DNA of 64,000 bases from Escherichia phage AV101. This document shows, one piece after another, positions 3,368-57,201 of this stretch. The translations under genes were made by a program, and so were the position numbers. The notes beneath the pieces were generated by a model. The model was not told the origin of the DNA and did no database searches. It saw nothing but the letters and a program-made list of their open reading frames with translations. The stretch is from the sequence record OQ973471.1; one strand, 5' to 3'. Every line of letters starts with the position of its first letter. The first letter of the stretch is position 1.

Positions 3368-3682
3368 ATGACCCCATTAAAAGAAATGTATGAGCGCCTG
3401 TCTGAACTACAGGCGAAGGAAAAGCGCTTCTCAGAAGAAGAGACAGAGCTGTCCGAGCTGAACACTTTGATCGCCACTCGTGAGAAGTACCTGCAGCGCT
3501 ACATTAATCACCCGCCGCGCATGGTAGACCGCGTCAGCACTATCATGGACCTGGATGAAGTTACTCCTGGCAAAGAAATCATTGTCAGGGAAGTCCACCA
3601 GATGGTCGCCATGGGTCAGATCTTTGGTCGTGCAGACCAAGACGACATGATCTTCCTCCTTGAAAAGAAACTGGTGATGTGA
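3368..3682 (+). CDS. hypothetical protein
   Basis: AAGAGGAA RBS before ATG 3368; 104 aa. Confidence 0.45.
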   Translation: MTPLKEMYERLSELQAKEKRFSEEETELSELNTLIATREKYLQRYINHPPRMVDRVSTIMDLDEVTPGKEIIVREVHQMVAMGQIFGRADQDDMIFLLEKKLVM

Positions 3683-4188
3683 TGGCTATCAAACCCCGTA
3701 TGTTGTTTGCGCATATGCGCTCGGCTCATGCATACGCTCTGTCCAGCTATGCACAACGCCTGAAGGTCGGCTGTGTTATCGTTGACCCGCGTGTTGACCA
3801 GCCCCTGTCTATCGGTTGGAACGGGACTGCTCCTGGCGCTCCTAATGTCTGTGAGAAGGAAGTAGACGGTCAACTGGTATCGGTGGGTGTTATCCACGCC
3901 GAGGAGAATGCTCTGAGCAAACTCCCCCAGCACACCGAAGACTGTTGTGGCCTGGTGATGTTTGTCACTCATAGTCCATGCCCAGAGTGCACCCGTCGTA
4001 TTATCGACAGTGGCAAGATCGCTAAAGTATTCTATGACCGACCATATCGTATCATAGACGGTATTATTGAAATGCTGGCTGCTGGGATTGAAGTATATCG
4101 CATGGTCGATCAGATTGTTGTAGTCCAGCATTCTGTGAAGAACGGCGAACTGGTATCCACCCCTGTTTTAGTGAACCCTGACAAATAA
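3682..4188 (+). CDS. cd: dCMP deaminase
   Basis: Zinc-deaminase motifs HAEENA and PCPEC; start ATG overlaps upstream stop (TGATG). Confidence 0.8.
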   Translation: MAIKPRMLFAHMRSAHAYALSSYAQRLKVGCVIVDPRVDQPLSIGWNGTAPGAPNVCEKEVDGQLVSVGVIHAEENALSKLPQHTEDCCGLVMFVTHSPCPECTRRIIDSGKIAKVFYDRPYRIIDGIIEMLAAGIEVYRMVDQIVVVQHSVKNGELVSTPVLVNPDK

Positions 4189-7017: not shown

Positions 7018-8402
7018 TCGAAAACAGAGAGACCCAAGACGGTATTGTAACACCGTCAACAACATTTGACCTGAAGTATATGGCGATCCTCCCTCATACG
7101 CCCCAGGGTGGATCACCAACGCCATATGACCTGACGGCGTTGTTTGAGGAGTTCAACGTCTTCCAGGATCTGGGTCTTGAAGGGAAGTCATCTCCATCAC
7201 TTACAGCCAATGTCTTGATAAAAGAGGGGTGGGACATTCTTGACACAATGCCTATCTTGGGTGGTGAAGAAGTTGTGGTGTCATTCAAGAGTCCGGCAGC
7301 CTCGGAATACACCACTCTCTCCCTGCGCGTAGCGCGTGTTGGGCGCGTAGCTGATGAGTCCAACAGCTCGTCCAAGAAAGCATTCTGGTTGCACATGGTG
7401 ACCACCGATGCCTATAAGGACAGCATGATCCGATGCTCCCTCGGTCTTGACGGTTCGTATTCTGACATGGCGAAGACAATCTTCAATCAGCTGGAGTCGC
7501 GCACCAAGTTCGAAGACATCGACCCGTCGTATGGAATTCAAGAGCGGTTCGCCACCCCGCTCTGGCCTGTGCTGCGATCTATTGATTATATGGCGAGCCG
7601 TTCTTATGACGAATTGTTCATGCCATTCGTGTTCTATGAAGACTTCAATGGCTATCACTTCAAGAGCCTGACGACGTTGTTCAACCAGGGCAGCCAGTCA
7701 TTGACAGCAGAAGAGAAGCAGGAACTAGCTCAGCAGAACAAGTTGTTCCGTGATCCTCAGGACGCGCCGCTCATGCAGGATAACAACTTCAACTCTGAGC
7801 GCTTTATGCGCACGATCATCAAGGCAGAGAAGAAGCTGGCGCGTGACCAGTTCATGGCAAACTACCGCGATGTCCTGGCGGTGAACGAGCGCGTCTACGA
7901 CTTTGAGACCAAGACAGTCACCCCAACACAGCGCGTCTACACTGAGTGGTTTGCAGAGACGGCTCACCTTGATCCGTTCCCGATGTTCTCAGATGAATTC
8001 AATCGTCAGAACGTCCGTTACATTGAAGCCCAGCCGGATGGAGCGGAGCAGATTGATTATGCTCGTCGTGTTATCAACTTCAGTCTTGCCAGCACTGTGA
8101 TGCGCGTGTTGCTCGTTGGTGATAACCGCCTGAACGTCGGTCAGGTGTTCTACGTTGAAGACCAGTCCAACCGTCCTAAGAAGAACGAAAACCTGGCAGA
8201 GTTAAGTAAGCTATCGACAGGCCACTATATCGTGACCAAAGTGCGTCACAAGATTTCCCGCCTGACCAAAGATTATCAGTGCATCGCTGAGATTGCCAAG
8301 GACAGTTTGCTGGAGCAGGTGCTTCCACCTCAGACCAATCAGACAACTGCTTCCACCACTACTCCTCAGGCGATTGAGAAAGGCCAAGCACAGAAGGTTT
8401 AA
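7014..8402 (+). CDS. putative baseplate hub protein (gp27-like, tentative)
   Basis: 462 aa; position between structural genes and upstream of tape-measure-like gene. Confidence 0.3.
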   Translation: MIENRETQDGIVTPSTTFDLKYMAILPHTPQGGSPTPYDLTALFEEFNVFQDLGLEGKSSPSLTANVLIKEGWDILDTMPILGGEEVVVSFKSPAASEYTTLSLRVARVGRVADESNSSSKKAFWLHMVTTDAYKDSMIRCSLGLDGSYSDMAKTIFNQLESRTKFEDIDPSYGIQERFATPLWPVLRSIDYMASRSYDELFMPFVFYEDFNGYHFKSLTTLFNQGSQSLTAEEKQELAQQNKLFRDPQDAPLMQDNNFNSERFMRTIIKAEKKLARDQFMANYRDVLAVNERVYDFETKTVTPTQRVYTEWFAETAHLDPFPMFSDEFNRQNVRYIEAQPDGAEQIDYARRVINFSLASTVMRVLLVGDNRLNVGQVFYVEDQSNRPKKNENLAELSKLSTGHYIVTKVRHKISRLTKDYQCIAEIAKDSLLEQVLPPQTNQTTASTTTPQAIEKGQAQKV

Positions 8403-17666: not shown

Positions 17667-17996
17667 CTACCCCACCAAAAATTTATTATATTCCTGAGCA
17701 TTACGCTGCATGAGGTCTACAAGGATATCCCCTGACACCTCAGTGAACAAGTCATTTTCTTTCAAATTCACAAACATCAGACGCAATGGTTTCTTCAATA
17801 TATCAGTCACGAAAGACAGGCGGGGTTCGCCGTCCACTTCGTTGATGGCCACCTTGCCGAACCGGAATTGAACACCACGGAATTTGCCAGAAGTGATCTT
17901 GATGATCGCCAGCTGTTCAGCACCAGGGTCGATGATTGTGTAGTTATTGGGGGAGTCTCCTCCCCCTCCACTGTTATTCGCTTGTGTTGATAACAT
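17667..17996 (-). CDS. hypothetical protein (position equivalent to T4 gene 40)
   Basis: Between uvsX and helicase; ATG at 17996 (track start 18047 is GTG). Confidence 0.35.
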   Translation of the reverse strand: MLSTQANNSGGGGDSPNNYTIIDPGAEQLAIIKITSGKFRGVQFRFGKVAINEVDGEPRLSFVTDILKKPLRLMFVNLKENDLFTEVSGDILVDLMQRNAQEYNKFLVG

Positions 17997-19059
17997 GGTC
18001 CATTTGCTCCAGCATGTTCGCAGGCATAACAGTACCGTTAGAAACACCGAACATCTTCTTCACGTCATTGGCGAAGTCAACATTCTCCAGTAGCGGATAC
18101 CAGAAATCATCGCCCATCTGGCGCTTCTGATATTTCTTTTCCTTCTCGGGATCGAAACCACCCTTGGCTGTACGCACATACCAGCCGGAAGACGGCATAT
18201 CAACATAACCCAGAGCACGAGCGATCTCAAGCAGGCCGCTCCAGCGATCAATACCGCCGTTGTACAGTACCGTCACAGGGAGCTTGGCTTTCTCTTTGAC
18301 ATGGCGACCTTTCATGATGCTTATGTTGAAGTTCCAGCCCAGCAGATCTTTGTCTTCCTTCACCTGAGAACGGGTGATAAACCAGATCAAGTTGGATGAT
18401 AAGAAGCCCTGCTTGCCGCCTTTGATGTTAGGCTCGGCATACTGGTTGCCGATCTCATCGTAATAGGAGTTGATCCAAACACACACGAGATTTTTGCTGT
18501 TGATTTCAGGAGTCATGACACGCCAGAAGCTGTTGAGGGCACGGGCGCGGGTCATGTCTTGAGTGTCGTTCCCTTTGATCGCATCTTCAACTTCCTTGGT
18601 GGAGGGAAGTTGGCTGATAGAGTCGATGAAGATTATAACATGGTCGCCTTTCTTGACTTCCTGTAGGATCTGCAGCAAGCGGATCTTGGTCTGTTCAACG
18701 TTGTCGATCGGTACGTACAGGACGCGGTCCATGTCAATGCCCATAGAGGTCCAGTAATCAGCGTTGGCACCCTTTTCCGAGTCAGCAAATACACAGATAG
18801 CATCAGGGAACTTGTCCATATAAGCCTTGACGTCCACCAGACCGAACATCGTTTTGAAGGTACGGGAATCACCCACCATCATCTTGATACCGGAGATCAG
18901 GCCGCCGTCAATACGCCCAGACCATGCGATGTCGATCAGGGGAATACCAGTAGAACATATGATAGACGGTTCCAGAGCGTCTGATTGGGACAGTACTGAA
19001 GCCTGGTCGTCATGTTTCTTGGCAACCTTCAGCATGCGGTCCATTAATGAACTGGCCAT
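17974..19059 (-). CDS. uvsX: UvsX recombinase (RecA-like)
   Basis: RecA-fold motifs (MMVGDSRTFKT, IIFIDSISQL); 361 aa; AGAGGAAG RBS. Confidence 0.85.
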   Translation of the reverse strand: MASSLMDRMLKVAKKHDDQASVLSQSDALEPSIICSTGIPLIDIAWSGRIDGGLISGIKMMVGDSRTFKTMFGLVDVKAYMDKFPDAICVFADSEKGANADYWTSMGIDMDRVLYVPIDNVEQTKIRLLQILQEVKKGDHVIIFIDSISQLPSTKEVEDAIKGNDTQDMTRARALNSFWRVMTPEINSKNLVCVWINSYYDEIGNQYAEPNIKGGKQGFLSSNLIWFITRSQVKEDKDLLGWNFNISIMKGRHVKEKAKLPVTVLYNGGIDRWSGLLEIARALGYVDMPSSGWYVRTAKGGFDPEKEKKYQKRQMGDDFWYPLLENVDFANDVKKMFGVSNGTVMPANMLEQMDHVINTSE

Positions 19060-19586
19060 TTCACTTCCTCTTTGTTGTTAATCGTCGTTAGTAAGTCTAC
19101 ACCCATAACCTTCTGGGACAAAATGTTAACCGCCTCTTGGATGCTCTTCAGGGACATTGTCTCAACAAGCGACGATGCGTCATTATGCCGGTCGGTTAGG
19201 TACATATTGCGCAGATTGTTGTAGTTCGTGCGGTTGATGCACGCAGTGTTCAGTGCTATATTCAGGATATACATTATCTGTTCAATGGTTACATCCTTTG
19301 GCATAGCGTGGATGTAATAGATCGAGCCTTCAAAATAGACGTCTACCAGTTCATCTGGTATCTTGATGCCACCACTGGCATACTCTTCGATCATTCTGAA
19401 CAGAGACTCTGGTTGCTCGCTGGCGATCTTATGCGTAACAGTCGCCGAAAGACCGTCGCCCGGTTTAACAGGCCTGTTGTATTCAGTAAGGAATACATTA
19501 TGTCCGCCGCCGATGATGTGCTCGGCGAATTTGGAAGATGCCTGAGCAGCGTTCTCCGCATGGTATGAAACGACGACTGTAAACAT
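19044..19586 (-). CDS. hypothetical protein (last gene of nucleotide-modification operon)
   Basis: Start ATG overlaps upstream stop (TAATG). Confidence 0.4.
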   Translation of the reverse strand: MFTVVVSYHAENAAQASSKFAEHIIGGGHNVFLTEYNRPVKPGDGLSATVTHKIASEQPESLFRMIEEYASGGIKIPDELVDVYFEGSIYYIHAMPKDVTIEQIMYILNIALNTACINRTNYNNLRNMYLTDRHNDASSLVETMSLKSIQEAVNILSQKVMGVDLLTTINNKEEVKWPVH

Positions 19587-20140
19587 TAGAACTCCAGGGT
19601 CAGAGGGGTTTCTGCGGACTTATCGTAATCCGCGCCACCAGCAGCACGCAGGCGATTGCGATCGTTCTTGCGTTTGTGTGCCAGTATGTAAGTCTCAATG
19701 TCGATCTCCATATAAGAACACGCAGACGACAGGAAGAACATGAGAGTCTCAACGCAAGGATCGTTCATGAATTGCCCAAGGCGGTACGTAACATTGCGAT
19801 GCCCTACAACACCCAAAGCAGGTGGGGTGAATTCGCGATTACTAAGGACTTCAAATTCTTCTTCGATCTCACCTTTGGTGCGGTCCACAAGGATGAAGCA
19901 CAACATGAAGTGTACCACGTCCACCAGTTCATAAACTGCGTTCGTATGGTCAAACCCGATGTCGTTGCCATAGACCTTCCAGTCACGGGTGGTTTCATCA
20001 AGGAACTCTGCCCACTCACGATAGATAGAGTTGATGACTGCGTTCTGACTCCATACATTCTTCCACTCTTCCCCAAAGTAGGCCACGTTAGTGGCCTTTT
20101 GGAGTTCGAGCAGGCTTTTGATATGCCCTGCTGTGATCAT
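19586..20140 (-). CDS. MazG-like all-alpha NTP pyrophosphatase (dCTPase gp56-like)
   Basis: REWAEFLDE and YELVDVVHFML motifs resemble MazG/gp56 acidic helices; ATGA coupling. Confidence 0.45.
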   Translation of the reverse strand: MITAGHIKSLLELQKATNVAYFGEEWKNVWSQNAVINSIYREWAEFLDETTRDWKVYGNDIGFDHTNAVYELVDVVHFMLCFILVDRTKGEIEEEFEVLSNREFTPPALGVVGHRNVTYRLGQFMNDPCVETLMFFLSSACSYMEIDIETYILAHKRKNDRNRLRAAGGADYDKSAETPLTLEF

Positions 20141-20706
20141 TTACGTTCTCCGTAGAATTTAACGAACGGCTCCCAACCATCAAATGGATTGAGGAATTCG
20201 TAGTCCACTTTCATTTGGTCAATGAAAGCCTCTATATCGTCCTCTATGATACCAGCACGGTCGGCCTTTGAAATACGGGTGATAGGACATTTCGTACTCA
20301 GCGCCCATTCATATTCCTGAGGGGTACGCAGATCGCTCACGATATAATGGACGTGGGGGTTCTGCTCTACCAGAGGAAGCTGGAAACGCTTGAAGAATGC
20401 CAGGAACAGATCGGGTTGTACGTAACGCAAGCCCGTATCGCTGCCTAGATGAAGCCAGATCTGCCGGGGAGTTAAGCCCTTGGGGTTATCAGGGTGCACG
20501 TAAGGAACGTCCTTCACGGCATCCTCTACCTCCGCTGGCAGCCATGGATAGATGAAGTTGGCAACCCGGCGCAGTTCATCTGAGAACGAAAGGCGCTGGA
20601 TGTCCATATCACCCTGTAGTTGGTGATAGCTGATGAGGGACTCCAAACAGAAGTCCTTGCCGGAACGCTTGCGCCCCGTAAAGAATTCAAGATTTGGGTA
20701 CATCAT
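20137..20706 (-). CDS. deoxynucleoside monophosphate kinase (gp1-like)
   Basis: N-terminal FFTGRKRSGKD P-loop matching T4 gp1 FLSGVKRSGKD; coupled to neighbours. Confidence 0.65.
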   Translation of the reverse strand: MMYPNLEFFTGRKRSGKDFCLESLISYHQLQGDMDIQRLSFSDELRRVANFIYPWLPAEVEDAVKDVPYVHPDNPKGLTPRQIWLHLGSDTGLRYVQPDLFLAFFKRFQLPLVEQNPHVHYIVSDLRTPQEYEWALSTKCPITRISKADRAGIIEDDIEAFIDQMKVDYEFLNPFDGWEPFVKFYGERK

Positions 20707-21749
20707 ACTACACCTTCCAGGAACTTAGGATCAACGATCTTGCGGTCAACCGGAGAATGGGTGAGCGCGGTGTTCAATCCATGATCCTGAATCAGGTCCA
20801 GGTTAATGAGCTTGTTATTCAATTTGCAGTGCAGGCAGTATGCCATCTGCACAATCAGACCGCGATCCGCATCATACTCCTTCAGGAAGGCAACAACAGT
20901 TTCCCAAGGACTACCGAAGTCACAATGAACAAGCACGCCAGTGAACAGATCGCGGATATGGTTCTGGTTGGTCACGTTCGTGAAGTGGATCATGGAGTTG
21001 ATGAACCCAGCTTCTACTTTGGTGTCCTTCGTGATCTTGCCCAGCTGCTTCTGGCTGACTTCATTGTTGTAGTAATGAAGATTGTTGGAGAAGAGCTTGT
21101 ACTGGCCGACGTCAACATCCAACACCCGAGCAATCACTTCCTGAAGAATAGAGAACTCAATGAAGTTGATTGAACTCATACCCCACAGAACATCCTGTGA
21201 GCGATTGATAACCGTCAGGTTCAGGCGACCTTCAACGATGGCGAACAACAGAGCCAGGTTACACACCATGTCCTTGGTCTTTGCTTCGCCACTCTCACTG
21301 AACTTCGCCAGACCAGCATCTGAATCCAGAGCCGGATCATAGATGGTGAGGTACGCCTGGCGAGTGTTTGGATTCTTGCGCAGGCGGTTGATGACGCTAT
21401 CCAGCTGGCCATGGGCGTACAGACGCGGACCATAAGCGGCTCGCCATGTGTGGCCGTTGTCGGAAAAGTTGGCGGCGCGGGGCAACACGCGGGACAGGAA
21501 GCGAACGTCATCGCGCCCGGACAGAACCCAGAAGGTCTCGCCGATGGCGGCGATAGCCGATGAGTTACGACCTTCAACGGATAGCCAGCGGTCACGGATG
21601 TCGGCGACGGTTATGGTCACGCCATCAAGGAAGCGGGTGCTATCAGTATTGATTTCAGCATTACCAGGATCAGATTCGATCCCGAATTCACGGATAGCCA
21701 AGACAGCCTGTTTCAGCATGTCATTGTTGTTTATTGCTTTGATTTCCAT
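20703..21749 (-). CDS. thymidylate-synthase-family pyrimidine hydroxymethylase (gp42-like, divergent)
   Basis: TS-fold motifs: catalytic Cys in DMVCN, NRSQDV matching TS QRSCDV / gp42 MRSNDV; 348 aa, about 100 aa longer than T4 gp42. Confidence 0.7.
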   Translation of the reverse strand: MEIKAINNNDMLKQAVLAIREFGIESDPGNAEINTDSTRFLDGVTITVADIRDRWLSVEGRNSSAIAAIGETFWVLSGRDDVRFLSRVLPRAANFSDNGHTWRAAYGPRLYAHGQLDSVINRLRKNPNTRQAYLTIYDPALDSDAGLAKFSESGEAKTKDMVCNLALLFAIVEGRLNLTVINRSQDVLWGMSSINFIEFSILQEVIARVLDVDVGQYKLFSNNLHYYNNEVSQKQLGKITKDTKVEAGFINSMIHFTNVTNQNHIRDLFTGVLVHCDFGSPWETVVAFLKEYDADRGLIVQMAYCLHCKLNNKLINLDLIQDHGLNTALTHSPVDRKIVDPKFLEGVV

Positions 21750-22408
21750 CAGATACTCCCAAAATCACGACAGAGGAATGCCATCACAGCCTGGTCTACT
21801 GTTAGGCCGTGAGACTTCATCATACCCGCAGCCACCGTAGGGAACAAGTCTTTATGTCGTTGACGATGGTCATGAACTCTCTCCCACTTCTCGACCACCA
21901 GACTTTCATTGAAATCCACACCGCCGTTGCGTGATTTAACGCGGGTGATACACGTTTCAAGAGGAGTGTCCATAAAGAGCACAACCAATTCACGTGGTGG
22001 GCGTGTCAGGCGGGGGATCCAAGAACTCAATAATGTGGATGGAATGATACCTTCGAAAATCACATCATATTTCAAGTATTCTGGTTGGTCAGCAATAGAC
22101 AACGCGAACAACATCTGCTCAGTGTCCTTCAGGGAATCAACCCCCTTGGACTTCGACTTGTCATATTTACCGATACAGACCACGTTGAACGAAGGACAGA
22201 CAGTCAGCATGACCTTGCCGTTATGGGTCACGACATACGCCTGAGGATCCCTCTCCGCCAGCTGAGACGGCACAGTGGATTTACCGCTACCATTGGAGCC
22301 TTTGACGTAGTAGATTTGCCCTCGTGCTGGGTAGATCCCCTTTACGACGGGTGGTTTAAAGAATGTGTGGACGGGGCGCTTCATCAGCCCCTTCAGGGAG
22401 TAGGACAT
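21749..22408 (-). CDS. P-loop kinase, polynucleotide-kinase-like
   Basis: Walker A GSNGSGKST and downstream LFMDTPLETCITRVKSRNGG resembling T4 Pnk kinase domain FDVPWTELVKRNSKRG; no phosphatase domain. Confidence 0.5.
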   Translation of the reverse strand: MSYSLKGLMKRPVHTFFKPPVVKGIYPARGQIYYVKGSNGSGKSTVPSQLAERDPQAYVVTHNGKVMLTVCPSFNVVCIGKYDKSKSKGVDSLKDTEQMLFALSIADQPEYLKYDVIFEGIIPSTLLSSWIPRLTRPPRELVVLFMDTPLETCITRVKSRNGGVDFNESLVVEKWERVHDHRQRHKDLFPTVAAGMMKSHGLTVDQAVMAFLCRDFGSI

Positions 22409-22443
22409 AAACTGCTCCGATAAACAAAAGGAGCTGCTATTAT

Positions 22444-22474
22444 AGCAACCCCTTCATCTATTGAACAGTTTCTG
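22444..22474 (-). promoter_or_regulatory. putative early promoter (TTCAAT ... TGCTATAAT) overlapping 13-bp palindrome TGCTATTATAGCA
   Basis: Minus-strand extended -10 TGCTATAAT; perfect palindrome 22444-22456; sits before the modification operon. Confidence 0.4.
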
Positions 22475-22483
22475 AACTTAAAT

Positions 22484-23323
22484 TTACACAGCTTTCGCTT
22501 CAGCCAGAGCCTGTGGAAGCCATTCATTGATCGCCTTAACCAGAGACTCAGCATCAGACTCTTTGATCTTCTGACGTTTGGTGAAGGACTTGCCGTTCAC
22601 GTACAGACTGAAGCCCCAGCCACCGGAAACGATAGGCGCAACGTCGACATACGTATTGGTGCGGGCGTGAAGGTTTTCAGGGTTAGCCAGTTCGGTGACC
22701 GGGAACTGGAACCAACGCATGTCTGGGTTCACGTAGCTCAGGAACACGCCGGGGACAACACCAGCTTCAATCGCCGCCAAGACCGGACCGTGATTAGAAG
22801 CGCGAGCCACGTCAACCATTTCCTCACGTTTGGTGTGACGGCGTTTACGCTCTACCAGCGCCGCCTGCGGGGTCAGGGTCTTACCCTTCGATGCTTCTTT
22901 CAGCATAGAAGACGCCAAGGAACCGATTTTCGCGTCGGACGGCTGATTGCCTTCTTCCAGCGCCGCGTTGACTGCATCTTTAACTGCGTCTACCGGGGCG
23001 TCGGACACTACTGGGGCTTCACATGCATCGGCAGAGATCGGTGCTTCAGCATCAACGGTTTCAGCGACTTTCAGGGATACTTCAGCTTGGGCTTGCTCTT
23101 GGGCTTGCGCCAGAGCCTGCTGAGTTTCTTCCTTCTCTTCGGCGCTCAGACCTTCAATCAGTTCGAAGCCGTTGGCAGCCTGAAGAACACCTTCAACCAT
23201 ACGGCGCAGGGTAACGTTTCCGATGATCAGACCTGCTTCTTTGATTTCAGCCTGGATAGCCGCAACGTCTTTGCCTTCAATTTCAATTTTGGTTCCAGAA
23301 TCCACATGAAGAATATATGACAT
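22484..23323 (-). CDS. hypothetical protein with Ala/Glu-rich linker
   Basis: 279 aa; low-complexity acidic middle; no identified motif. Confidence 0.4.
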   Translation of the reverse strand: MSYILHVDSGTKIEIEGKDVAAIQAEIKEAGLIIGNVTLRRMVEGVLQAANGFELIEGLSAEEKEETQQALAQAQEQAQAEVSLKVAETVDAEAPISADACEAPVVSDAPVDAVKDAVNAALEEGNQPSDAKIGSLASSMLKEASKGKTLTPQAALVERKRRHTKREEMVDVARASNHGPVLAAIEAGVVPGVFLSYVNPDMRWFQFPVTELANPENLHARTNTYVDVAPIVSGGWGFSLYVNGKSFTKRQKIKESDAESLVKAINEWLPQALAEAKAV

Positions 23324-23512
23324 AATAAAAACCCTTTCGTTATTAAGACCGTATCCGCAGCATATTGTTGTTCTGACTGTGTAGTGAGAACATAATATAC
23401 TGCATTTTCATAGATGTAAACTACTTTTTATTGAAAAGAAAGTTAACACCTTAGTGTTATAAGGTGCGCGACCAAGCGGAGCGCGAACTTGCGTGAATAT
23501 TAACTTTCTACG

Positions 23513-56922: not shown

Positions 56923-57201
56923 TTACTTGCCGTTGGCAGCGTTCTTCAGACCTTCGCCCACTTTGAATTTCACAACGTTTTTCGCCGCGATCTGAATGGT
57001 CTGGCCGTTCAGAGGGTTGCGGCCTTCACGCGCTTCTTGGTGTTTCACTTCGAACGCACCGAAGCCGACCAGCTGTACAGATGCGCCTGCAGCAACTGCA
57101 GTTTTAACACCGTCGATAAAGGATGCCACTACTTTCTCCGCTTCGCCTTTGGTGATATTCTGGGTCGAAGCAATGTGGGCAACAAATTCAGTACGATTCA
57201 T
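56923..57201 (-). CDS. HU/IHF-family DNA-binding protein
   Basis: Strong HU signature (VQLVGFGAFEV...GRNPLNGQTIQIAAKNVVKFK), 92 aa. Confidence 0.85.
   Translation of the reverse strand: MNRTEFVAHIASTQNITKGEAEKVVASFIDGVKTAVAAGASVQLVGFGAFEVKHQEAREGRNPLNGQTIQIAAKNVVKFKVGEGLKNAANGK

Follow-up and report, generated by a model that had tools for sequence, protein, structure and literature searches.

A coupled gene cluster of Escherichia phage AV101 very probably encodes part of a ViI-type thymidine hypermodification pathway

Salmonella phage ViI carries the hypermodified nucleoside 5-(2-aminoethoxy)methyl-deoxyuridine (5-NeOmdU) in place of ∼40% of its thymine (T). The same nucleoside has been measured in phages CBA120 and CBA6 and in Vibrio phage 1.255.O, and deoxycytidine (dC) is unmodified in relatives (PMC5889632). 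ViI gp67 is one of five ViI proteins that reconstitute 5-NeOmdU from DNA containing 5-hydroxymethyl-deoxyuridine (5-hmdU) (PMC5889632), and in vitro the purified protein adds a phosphate to 5-hmdU within DNA (PMC8989533). The gene for such a 5-hmdU DNA kinase (5-HMUDK) co-associates with a gene for a deoxyuridine monophosphate (dUMP) hydroxymethyltransferase; Ag3, SKML-39 and LIMEstone are listed among the 5-HMUDK phages (PMC5889632). In a Taipeivirus 5-NeOmdU amounts to 16.4% of deoxythymidine (2026 preprint), and a review describes the modification genes as conserved throughout the Ackermannviridae. Two simpler pathways provide further points of reference. In the paradigm of the hydroxymethyluracil (hmU) phages, a hydrolase of deoxythymidine and deoxyuridine triphosphates (dTTP and dUTP) removes dTTP and returns dUMP, and a role for deoxycytidine monophosphate (dCMP) deaminase is also described (PMC8989533); in T4, gp42, gp1 and gp56 constitute the hydroxymethyl-cytosine (hmC) pathway, and the post-replicative step is glucosylation. 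Here we describe a chain of minus-strand genes in Escherichia phage AV101 (record OQ973471.1; the 64,000-nt stretch analyzed is herein called the window), which very probably encodes the pre-replicative half and the first post-replicative enzyme of a thymidine hypermodification pathway of the ViI type.

The ViI array runs orf69, orf67 (gp67), orf66 thyA, orf65 dnk, orf63 dUTPase, orf62, uvsX, orf60 and a gp41-like helicase gene. The ViI proteins from orf69 through UvsX align to the window in the same order, with 57, 88, 75, 91, 61, 56 and 70% identity, respectively (tblastn). Vibrio phage 1.255.O has this gene order as well, as do five distant metagenomic or isolate contigs (gp2 - x - orf69-like - HMUDK - TS-like - dNMP kinase - dUTPase_2 - ACT_phage - UvsX - x - DnaB; TS, thymidylate synthase; dNMP, deoxynucleoside monophosphate), which carry remote members of the ACT-like family. 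The 4.3-kb region matches 269 phage records. It is 96.5 to 97.2% identical over its full length to the Escherichia, Salmonella and Enterobacter phages A221, RPN242, YX22 and vB_CECAV_050, and shares ∼91% identity with Shigella phage Ag3 and with SKML-39. As vB_CECAV_050 (PQ306799), the nearest complete genome, is classed as Ackermannviridae, Aglimvirinae, Agtrevirus, and the whole window is collinear with 13.9 through 79.2 kb of it, nucleotide identity places the window in an Agtrevirus (Ackermannviridae) phage ∼97% identical to sequenced isolates. Counterparts of ViI gp160, gp226, gp243 and gp247 were not found in the 64-kb window (tblastn). In vB_CECAV_050, the HMUDK of which is 100% identical to that of the window, all four of these further pathway genes are present, beyond the stretch collinear with the window (Table 1).

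By profile and orthology, the 219-aa protein is a 5-hmdU DNA kinase. It matches Pfam family PF18748 (HMUDK_HMUD1) with E = 1.6e-108 and 361.1 bits (cutoff, 27), residues 14 through 208 covering profile positions 1 through 195 of 196; the Walker A motif GSNGSGKST spans residues 37 through 45, and a further motif quoted in an earlier note on this DNA, LFMDTPLETCITRVKSR, stands at residue 144. The protein is 87.7% identical to ViI gp67 and is encoded at the syntenic position, directly upstream of the TS-like gene. A sequence search of the Protein Data Bank (PDB) returned no usable relative among solved structures. That note, drawn from the letters alone, had described a "PNK-like" (polynucleotide kinase-like) P-loop kinase of 5-HMUDK type: the P-loop is present, "PNK-like" proves a loose description, and the 5-HMUDK assignment is borne out by the profile score together with orthology to the assayed gp67. 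The kinase family is wider than the Ackermannviridae, with members in Pseudomonas, Bordetella and Bacillus phages.

The 348-aa protein, a member of the TS superfamily, is best read as a dUMP hydroxymethylase, as its active-site residues, predicted fold and orthology suggest. The Pfam TS model (PF00303) matches residues 67 through 235 only (E = 1.5e-15), and the NCBIfam TS equivalog models all score far under their cutoffs (57 vs. 327). Among solved structures, the closest in sequence is that of the cytidine monophosphate (CMP) 5-hydroxymethylase MilA (E = 8e-18), which outranks every thymidylate synthase; the protein is 75% identical to ViI orf66, and a 69%-identical homolog is already named "deoxyuridylate hydroxymethyltransferase" in one source. 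In hydroxymethylases the position three residues ahead of the catalytic Cys holds an Asp or Glu, the water-activating signature, where TS has Leu, as seen in the ternary complex of T4 dCMP hydroxymethylase (PMC6400193). The window protein has D160-M-V-C163 at this site (the DMVCN motif at residue 160), with D160 present in at least 90% of homologs.

The substrate is predicted to be dUMP rather than dCMP. In the work on MilA, cytosine specificity is assigned to Asp186 (gp42 Asp179), with Asn at this position for uracil, and ribose specificity to Ala176 and Lys133', with Ser and Arg for deoxyribose (PMC5175136). In the HMMER alignment "...GMSSINFIEF" of the window protein lies opposite "...GVP-FNIASY" of TS, so that a one-residue insertion makes N195 the counterpart of TS Asn177; this insertion accounts for the ambiguous Ile-Asn reading by which the earlier note had called the substrate uncertain. 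The position of gp42 D179, where an Asp had been named as evidence against the pathway, is occupied by Asn195. N195 is invariant in 48 homologs, as are E71, Y106, the catalytic C163, R183, D186, H225 and Y227. Since S184 in NRSQDV (motif start, residue 182) and R130 in NTRQ match the deoxyribose rule as N195 matches the uracil rule, all three determinants point to dUMP, and the uncertainty over the substrate is largely removed.

The AlphaFold2 model of the 348-aa protein (mean predicted confidence, pLDDT, 94) has the TS fold followed by C-terminal helices at residues 262 through 338. It matches MilA (PDB: 5jnh) over its full length (TM-scores of 0.72/0.78; 348 aligned columns), whereas TS structures align over ∼260 columns. 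In MilA a five-helix C-terminal domain, remote from the active site, stands in place of the tail with which TS closes off the folate site (PMC5175136). The window protein likewise lacks the TS C-terminal tail that seals this site for hydride transfer, and in its place the model has a helical domain that superposes on the extra domain of MilA. On this modeled structure, the ∼100 residues by which the enzyme exceeds gp42, rightly remarked upon in the earlier note, are a C-terminal five-helix domain of MilA type, a known feature. C163, D160 at Cys-3 and the full-length fold match uphold its assignment of the protein as a TS-superfamily hydroxymethylase.

The 189-aa protein falls, with E = 1.8e-47, into PHROG 139 ("deoxynucleoside monophosphate kinase") and is 91% identical to ViI orf65 "dnk"; its P-loop, GRKRSGKD, resembles GVKRSGKD of T4 gp1, to which it has a collinear, weak BLASTP match (E = 0.003), and Pfam, NCBIfam and PDB sequence searches gave no match. 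The PHROG assignment and the GxKRSGKD P-loop agree with its description as a gp1-like dNMP kinase. The 184-aa protein matches PF08761 (dUTPase_2; E = 9e-9, 36.3 bits; cutoff, 22.9) and PHROG 173 (E = 3e-40), and alignment to the dimeric dUTPase of C. jejuni (PDB: 1w2y) shows the metal-binding residues E42xxE45...E71xxD74 to be intact; the MazG-like NTPase proposed from the letters is thereby confirmed. So is a dCMP deaminase encoded elsewhere in the window (PF00383, E = 4e-16; zinc motif HAEENA...PCPEC).

From these assignments the following pathway can be proposed. The dCMP deaminase would supply dUMP, which the 348-aa enzyme, using methylene-tetrahydrofolate and water, would convert to 5-hydroxymethyl-dUMP. 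The gp1-like kinase would then form the diphosphate (5-hmdUDP) and the host nucleoside diphosphate kinase the triphosphate (5-hmdUTP), as in the hmU phages, while the dUTPase-like pyrophosphatase would cleave dUTP and probably dTTP, returning dUMP and excluding T and U from the DNA. Once the phage polymerase has incorporated 5-hmdU, the 219-aa 5-HMUDK would phosphorylate its 5-hydroxymethyl group in the DNA, as shown for the 88%-identical gp67. Enzymes encoded outside the window would complete the modification, an amino-acid:DNA transferase adding serine and a pyridoxal phosphate (PLP) decarboxylase producing 5-NeOmdU. Leftover 5-hmdU would be turned into thymine by a step on which the operon throws no light. 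The expected end product, by analogy with ViI, is 5-NeOmdU (a 301-Da nucleoside) partly replacing T. PF18748, the orthology to gp67 and the synteny with ViI all support the hypermodified-base pathway that the earlier note had sketched from a TS-family hydroxymethylase and a 5-HMUDK-type kinase.

Several points weigh against this assignment. The phosphorylating activity of 5-HMUDK was demonstrated for ViI gp67 only, and the window enzyme is linked to it by orthology; the likely substrates of the 184-aa protein (dUTP and dTTP, with 5-hmdUTP spared) follow from the hmU-phage paradigm only; and the remaining pathway genes are presumed present in the AV101 genome from the ∼97%-identical relative. 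A second hydroxymethylase signature, Ser or Thr two residues before the catalytic-base Tyr, is missing from the 348-aa protein, which has A104-A105-Y106. This signature was defined on dCMP hydroxymethylases, in which the Tyr touches the C4 amino group (PMC6400193), and its transfer to uracil enzymes may be doubtful. We found no direct measurement of Agtrevirus nucleoside composition in the literature, the 5-NeOmdU data coming from Kuttervirus, Taipeivirus and the Vibrio relative. The nearest relative has a second kinase that shares only 48% identity with gp243 and is fused to an endonuclease-like part. These last two points, together with a substitution level that already varies by genus (∼40% in ViI vs. 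16.4% in a Taipeivirus), would fit a pathway with the same 5-hmdU module and an end product or extent different from that of ViI, be it another amino-acid adduct, residual 5-hmdU or far lower substitution. We give such a divergence only a slim chance: the nearest genome encodes a Ser:DNA transferase and a PLP decarboxylase that are 89 and 92% identical to gp247 and gp226, and 5-NeOmdU is made even by Vibrio phage 1.255.O, a much more distant relative.

The low equivalog scores, the Asp in place of the TS Leu at Cys-3 and the exchange of the TS C-terminal tail for a MilA-type domain led us to reject a canonical thymidylate synthase. They also make it highly improbable that the genes form an ordinary nucleotide-salvage operon, in which such a synthase, a thymidylate or thymidine kinase, a dNMP kinase and a dUTPase would lead to normal dTTP. 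GenBank labels ("thymidylate synthase", "tk", "putative thymidylate kinase") favor salvage, as does the fact that Pfam and NCBIfam match TS models only; yet the protein labeled "tk" is, by its profile score and orthology to gp67, a 5-hmdU DNA kinase, and relatives contain 5-NeOmdU. A T4-like hmC pathway, with analogs of gp42, gp1 and gp56 working on dCMP, is extremely improbable. The specificity position holds an invariant Asn and not the Asp of gp42 and MilA, the encoded dCMP deaminase would remove the substrate, the neighboring kinase is of the type specific for 5-hmdU DNA, and dC is unmodified in relatives. On these grounds the hmC pathway was rejected, even though the gene set (hydroxymethylase, gp1-like kinase and gp56-like pyrophosphatase) is analogous and the best match by both sequence and fold is a cytidylate hydroxymethylase. 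A ViI-type pathway by way of 5-hmdU is thus the reading we retain.

Table 1. Features of the AV101 window and, in the last four rows, counterparts of ViI pathway genes in the vB_CECAV_050 genome (PQ306799), with percentage identity to the ViI protein
Feature	Position	Strand	Identity	Basis
279-aa protein, ViI orf69 ortholog	22484..23323	-		Open reading frame, PHROG 3905
5-HMUDK, 219 aa, P-loop, ViI gp67 ortholog	21749..22408	-		PF18748
TS-superfamily dUMP 5-hydroxymethylase (predicted), 348 aa, MilA-type C-terminal helical domain	20703..21749	-		PF00303, fold, residues
T4 gp1-like deoxynucleoside monophosphate kinase, 189 aa	20137..20706	-		PHROG 139, P-loop
All-alpha dimeric-dUTPase/MazG-like NTP pyrophosphohydrolase, 184 aa, candidate dUTPase/dTTPase	19586..20140	-		PF08761, PHROG 173
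ACT-like protein (Pfam ACT_phage), 180 aa	19044..19586	-		Slot between dUTPase-like gene and uvsX
UvsX/RecA-like recombinase	17974..19059	-		PF00154 + PF21134
dCMP deaminase	3682..4188 (start 3679/3682)	+		PF00383, zinc motif
HU/IHF-family DNA-binding protein, standalone	56923-57201	-		PF00216, E = 6e-30
Extended -10 element, TGCTATAAT	22447-22439	-		In 75-nt spacer upstream of kinase gene, hairpin apex
Terminator-type hairpin, GAAGGGGTTGC-TATAATA-GCAGCTCCTTT, then TGTTTAT	22427..22455	-		Fold, covariation
Sigma70-like promoter candidate, TTTACA-17-TATTAT	23392..23420	-		Upstream of 279-aa gene; 10/12 consensus matches only
ViI gp160 counterpart, PQ306799	84.6 kb		83%	HMUDK_hel (aGPT-Pplase1/HMUDK_hel)
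ViI gp226 counterpart, PQ306799	136.7 kb		92%	PALP (PLP decarboxylase)
ViI gp243 counterpart, PQ306799	145.3 kb		48%	HMUD2 (second kinase for 5-hmdU DNA)
ViI gp247 counterpart, PQ306799	146.8 kb		89%	ADDT (Ser:DNA transferase)

All six minus-strand open reading frames named in the earlier note (279, 219, 348, 189, 184 and 180 aa) were recovered at their coordinates (Table 1). The junctions between the 219-, 348-, 189-, 184- and 180-aa genes are, in order, TGATG (1 nt), ATGA (4 nt), ATGA (4 nt) and TAATG (1 nt), which agrees with translational coupling by stop/start overlap. The proposed end of the chain after five genes does not hold: the start of uvsX overlaps the 180-aa gene by 16 nt, so that uvsX is a sixth member of the coupled chain, outside the base pathway. 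The HU-like protein, which had been offered as a sign of a modified-base lifestyle, is real, and nothing links it to base modification.

Two proteins flanking the enzymes have no assigned role. The 279-aa protein belongs to PHROG 3905 (E = 3e-135); an Ala/Glu-rich linker connects its N-terminal and C-terminal parts, both of which are conserved, and the protein has no Pfam, NCBIfam or PDB match. Its identity is 57% to ViI orf69 and 33% (E = 9e-32) to the protein that Vibrio phage 1.255.O encodes in this slot. Its family comprises 344 phage records, essentially all of Ackermannviridae type (tblastn against phages), and a search with the C-terminal half returned two close matches only. The gene of the 180-aa ACT-like protein always lies between the dUTPase-like gene and uvsX (ViI orf62, 56% identical). 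An exhaustive profile search of its family yielded 19 representatives, in the same gene array wherever context was checked; as no independent gene context occurs among the 19, context does not disclose a function. In Vibrio phage 1.255.O the gene between the dUTPase-like gene and uvsX (locus 7163-7753) encodes a 196-aa "coil containing protein" without Pfam or PHROG matches, for which hhalign against the ACT-like profile shows no homology (probability, 0.1%); by sequence, a non-orthologous gene has taken over a fixed position. It is conceivable, although we think it unlikely, that one or both flanking proteins act in the pathway, either in the choice between 5-NeOmdU and thymine or in control of the pool enzymes by a ligand such as serine or a nucleotide. 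Of the two, the orf69-like protein has the stronger claim because it is kept beside the kinase in 1.255.O, where the ACT-like slot is filled by an unrelated protein.

The C-terminal end of the 180-aa protein (…KEEVKWPVH) is invariant across the ACT-like family and is coded by the 16-nt overlap at 19044-19059, which also carries the ribosome-binding site and start codon of uvsX (AAAGAGGAAGTGAAATGG). As the same 16 nt hold both, this conservation may in part reflect constraint by translation signals. In the vB_CECAV_050 genome, the HMUD2 kinase occurs within a single 532-aa open reading frame (record positions 144644-146242), of which it forms residues 236 through 531; the N-terminal 235 residues are homing-endonuclease-like (PHROG 15209/314), a part that ViI gp243 (304 aa) lacks.

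The extended -10 element TGCTATAAT, from which a single promoter for the operon had been proposed, is present upstream of the kinase gene. A single promoter is not established, since the element lies inside a terminator-type hairpin and a second, sigma70-like site is found upstream of the 279-aa gene. The RNA fold of the hairpin has an energy of -21.1 kcal/mol (z = -5.1). Across six Ackermannviridae loci, GCTATAAT at its apex is invariant and the stem arms covary in a compensatory manner; fold energies range from -19.6 to -27.7 kcal/mol (5/5 sequences folded). The LIMEstone1 record annotates the equivalent hairpin as a factor-independent terminator and has a "putative early promoter" upstream of the orf69-like gene, at the place matching the window site at 23420-23392. 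This site may be the true operon promoter; transcription of the operon may rely on the embedded -10 element, on read-through or on both.

A -10 element and a terminator thus seem to be conserved within the same 30 nt (22427-22455). Hairpins with TATAAT at the apex also occur at ∼27441 (minus strand), upstream of ssb, and at ∼16209 (minus strand), just after the DnaB-like helicase gene. TGnTATAAT sites number 4 in the window against 1.2 expected, and under looser criteria 5 hairpins with an apical TATAAT were detected, where shuffles gave an expectation of ∼0.9; TGCTATAATAGCA with mismatches shows no enrichment in the window (13 found vs. 10.8 expected).

Orthologs of the 219-aa kinase are labeled "terminase small subunit" in RefSeq (ViI gp67, LIMEstone1 and others) and in PHROG 800; further public labels are "baseplate hub", "tk" and "polynucleotide kinase". 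The terminase label is rejected here for the 219-aa protein. Together with "thymidylate synthase" for the hydroxymethylase, these labels amount to a systematic misannotation. N195, S184, R130 and D160 and the MilA-type domain support correction of the kinase and hydroxymethylase labels in public records.

Phage AV101 almost certainly carries DNA hypermodified with 5-NeOmdU. Such DNA would resist many restriction enzymes and hamper some sequencing and cloning methods, which is relevant to Ackermannviridae candidates for phage therapy. The system itself is already known, having been described for ViI, CBA120 and relatives between 2018 and 2021, and is considered family-wide; the present analysis adds the residue-level reading of the hydroxymethylase, the explanation of its extra domain and the note on misannotation.

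Of the known systems, that of ViI (PMC5889632, PMC8989533) is the closest, with an identical order of seven genes and proteins 56 to 91% identical. The two phages differ in classification (Cvivirinae/Kuttervirus for ViI vs. Aglimvirinae/Agtrevirus for the window), the dUTPase-like, ACT-like and orf69-like proteins of the window are only 55 to 61% identical to their ViI counterparts, and 5-NeOmdU has been measured in ViI, whereas in Agtrevirus it is predicted from the genes. The Bacillus hmU phages SPO1, SP8 and phi-e share the dCMP deaminase, dUMP hydroxymethylase, dNMP kinase and dTTP/dUTP hydrolase, with 5-hmdUTP replacing dTTP (PMC8989533). Their pathway ends at 5-hmdU, whereas in the window the DNA kinase gene, upstream of and overlapping the hydroxymethylase gene, would commit 5-hmdU onward. 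T4 has in common with the window a hydroxymethylase of the TS family that carries Asp at Cys-3, a gp1-like kinase with GxKRSGKD and an all-alpha NTP pyrophosphatase; it differs in Asp179 of gp42 (Asn195 in the window), in the absence of the extra C-terminal domain and in its post-replicative chemistry, glucosylation as opposed to the phosphorylation and amino-acid transfer predicted here. MilA of Streptomyces rimofaciens (PDB: 5jnh, 5b6d; PMC5175136) is the best match in sequence and fold and shares the five-helix C-terminal domain and the Asp at Cys-3 with the window enzyme. At ∼21% identity, MilA has Lys133', Ala176 and Asp186 for a cytosine ribonucleotide, where the window enzyme has Arg130, Ser184 and Asn195, as predicted for a uracil deoxyribonucleotide.

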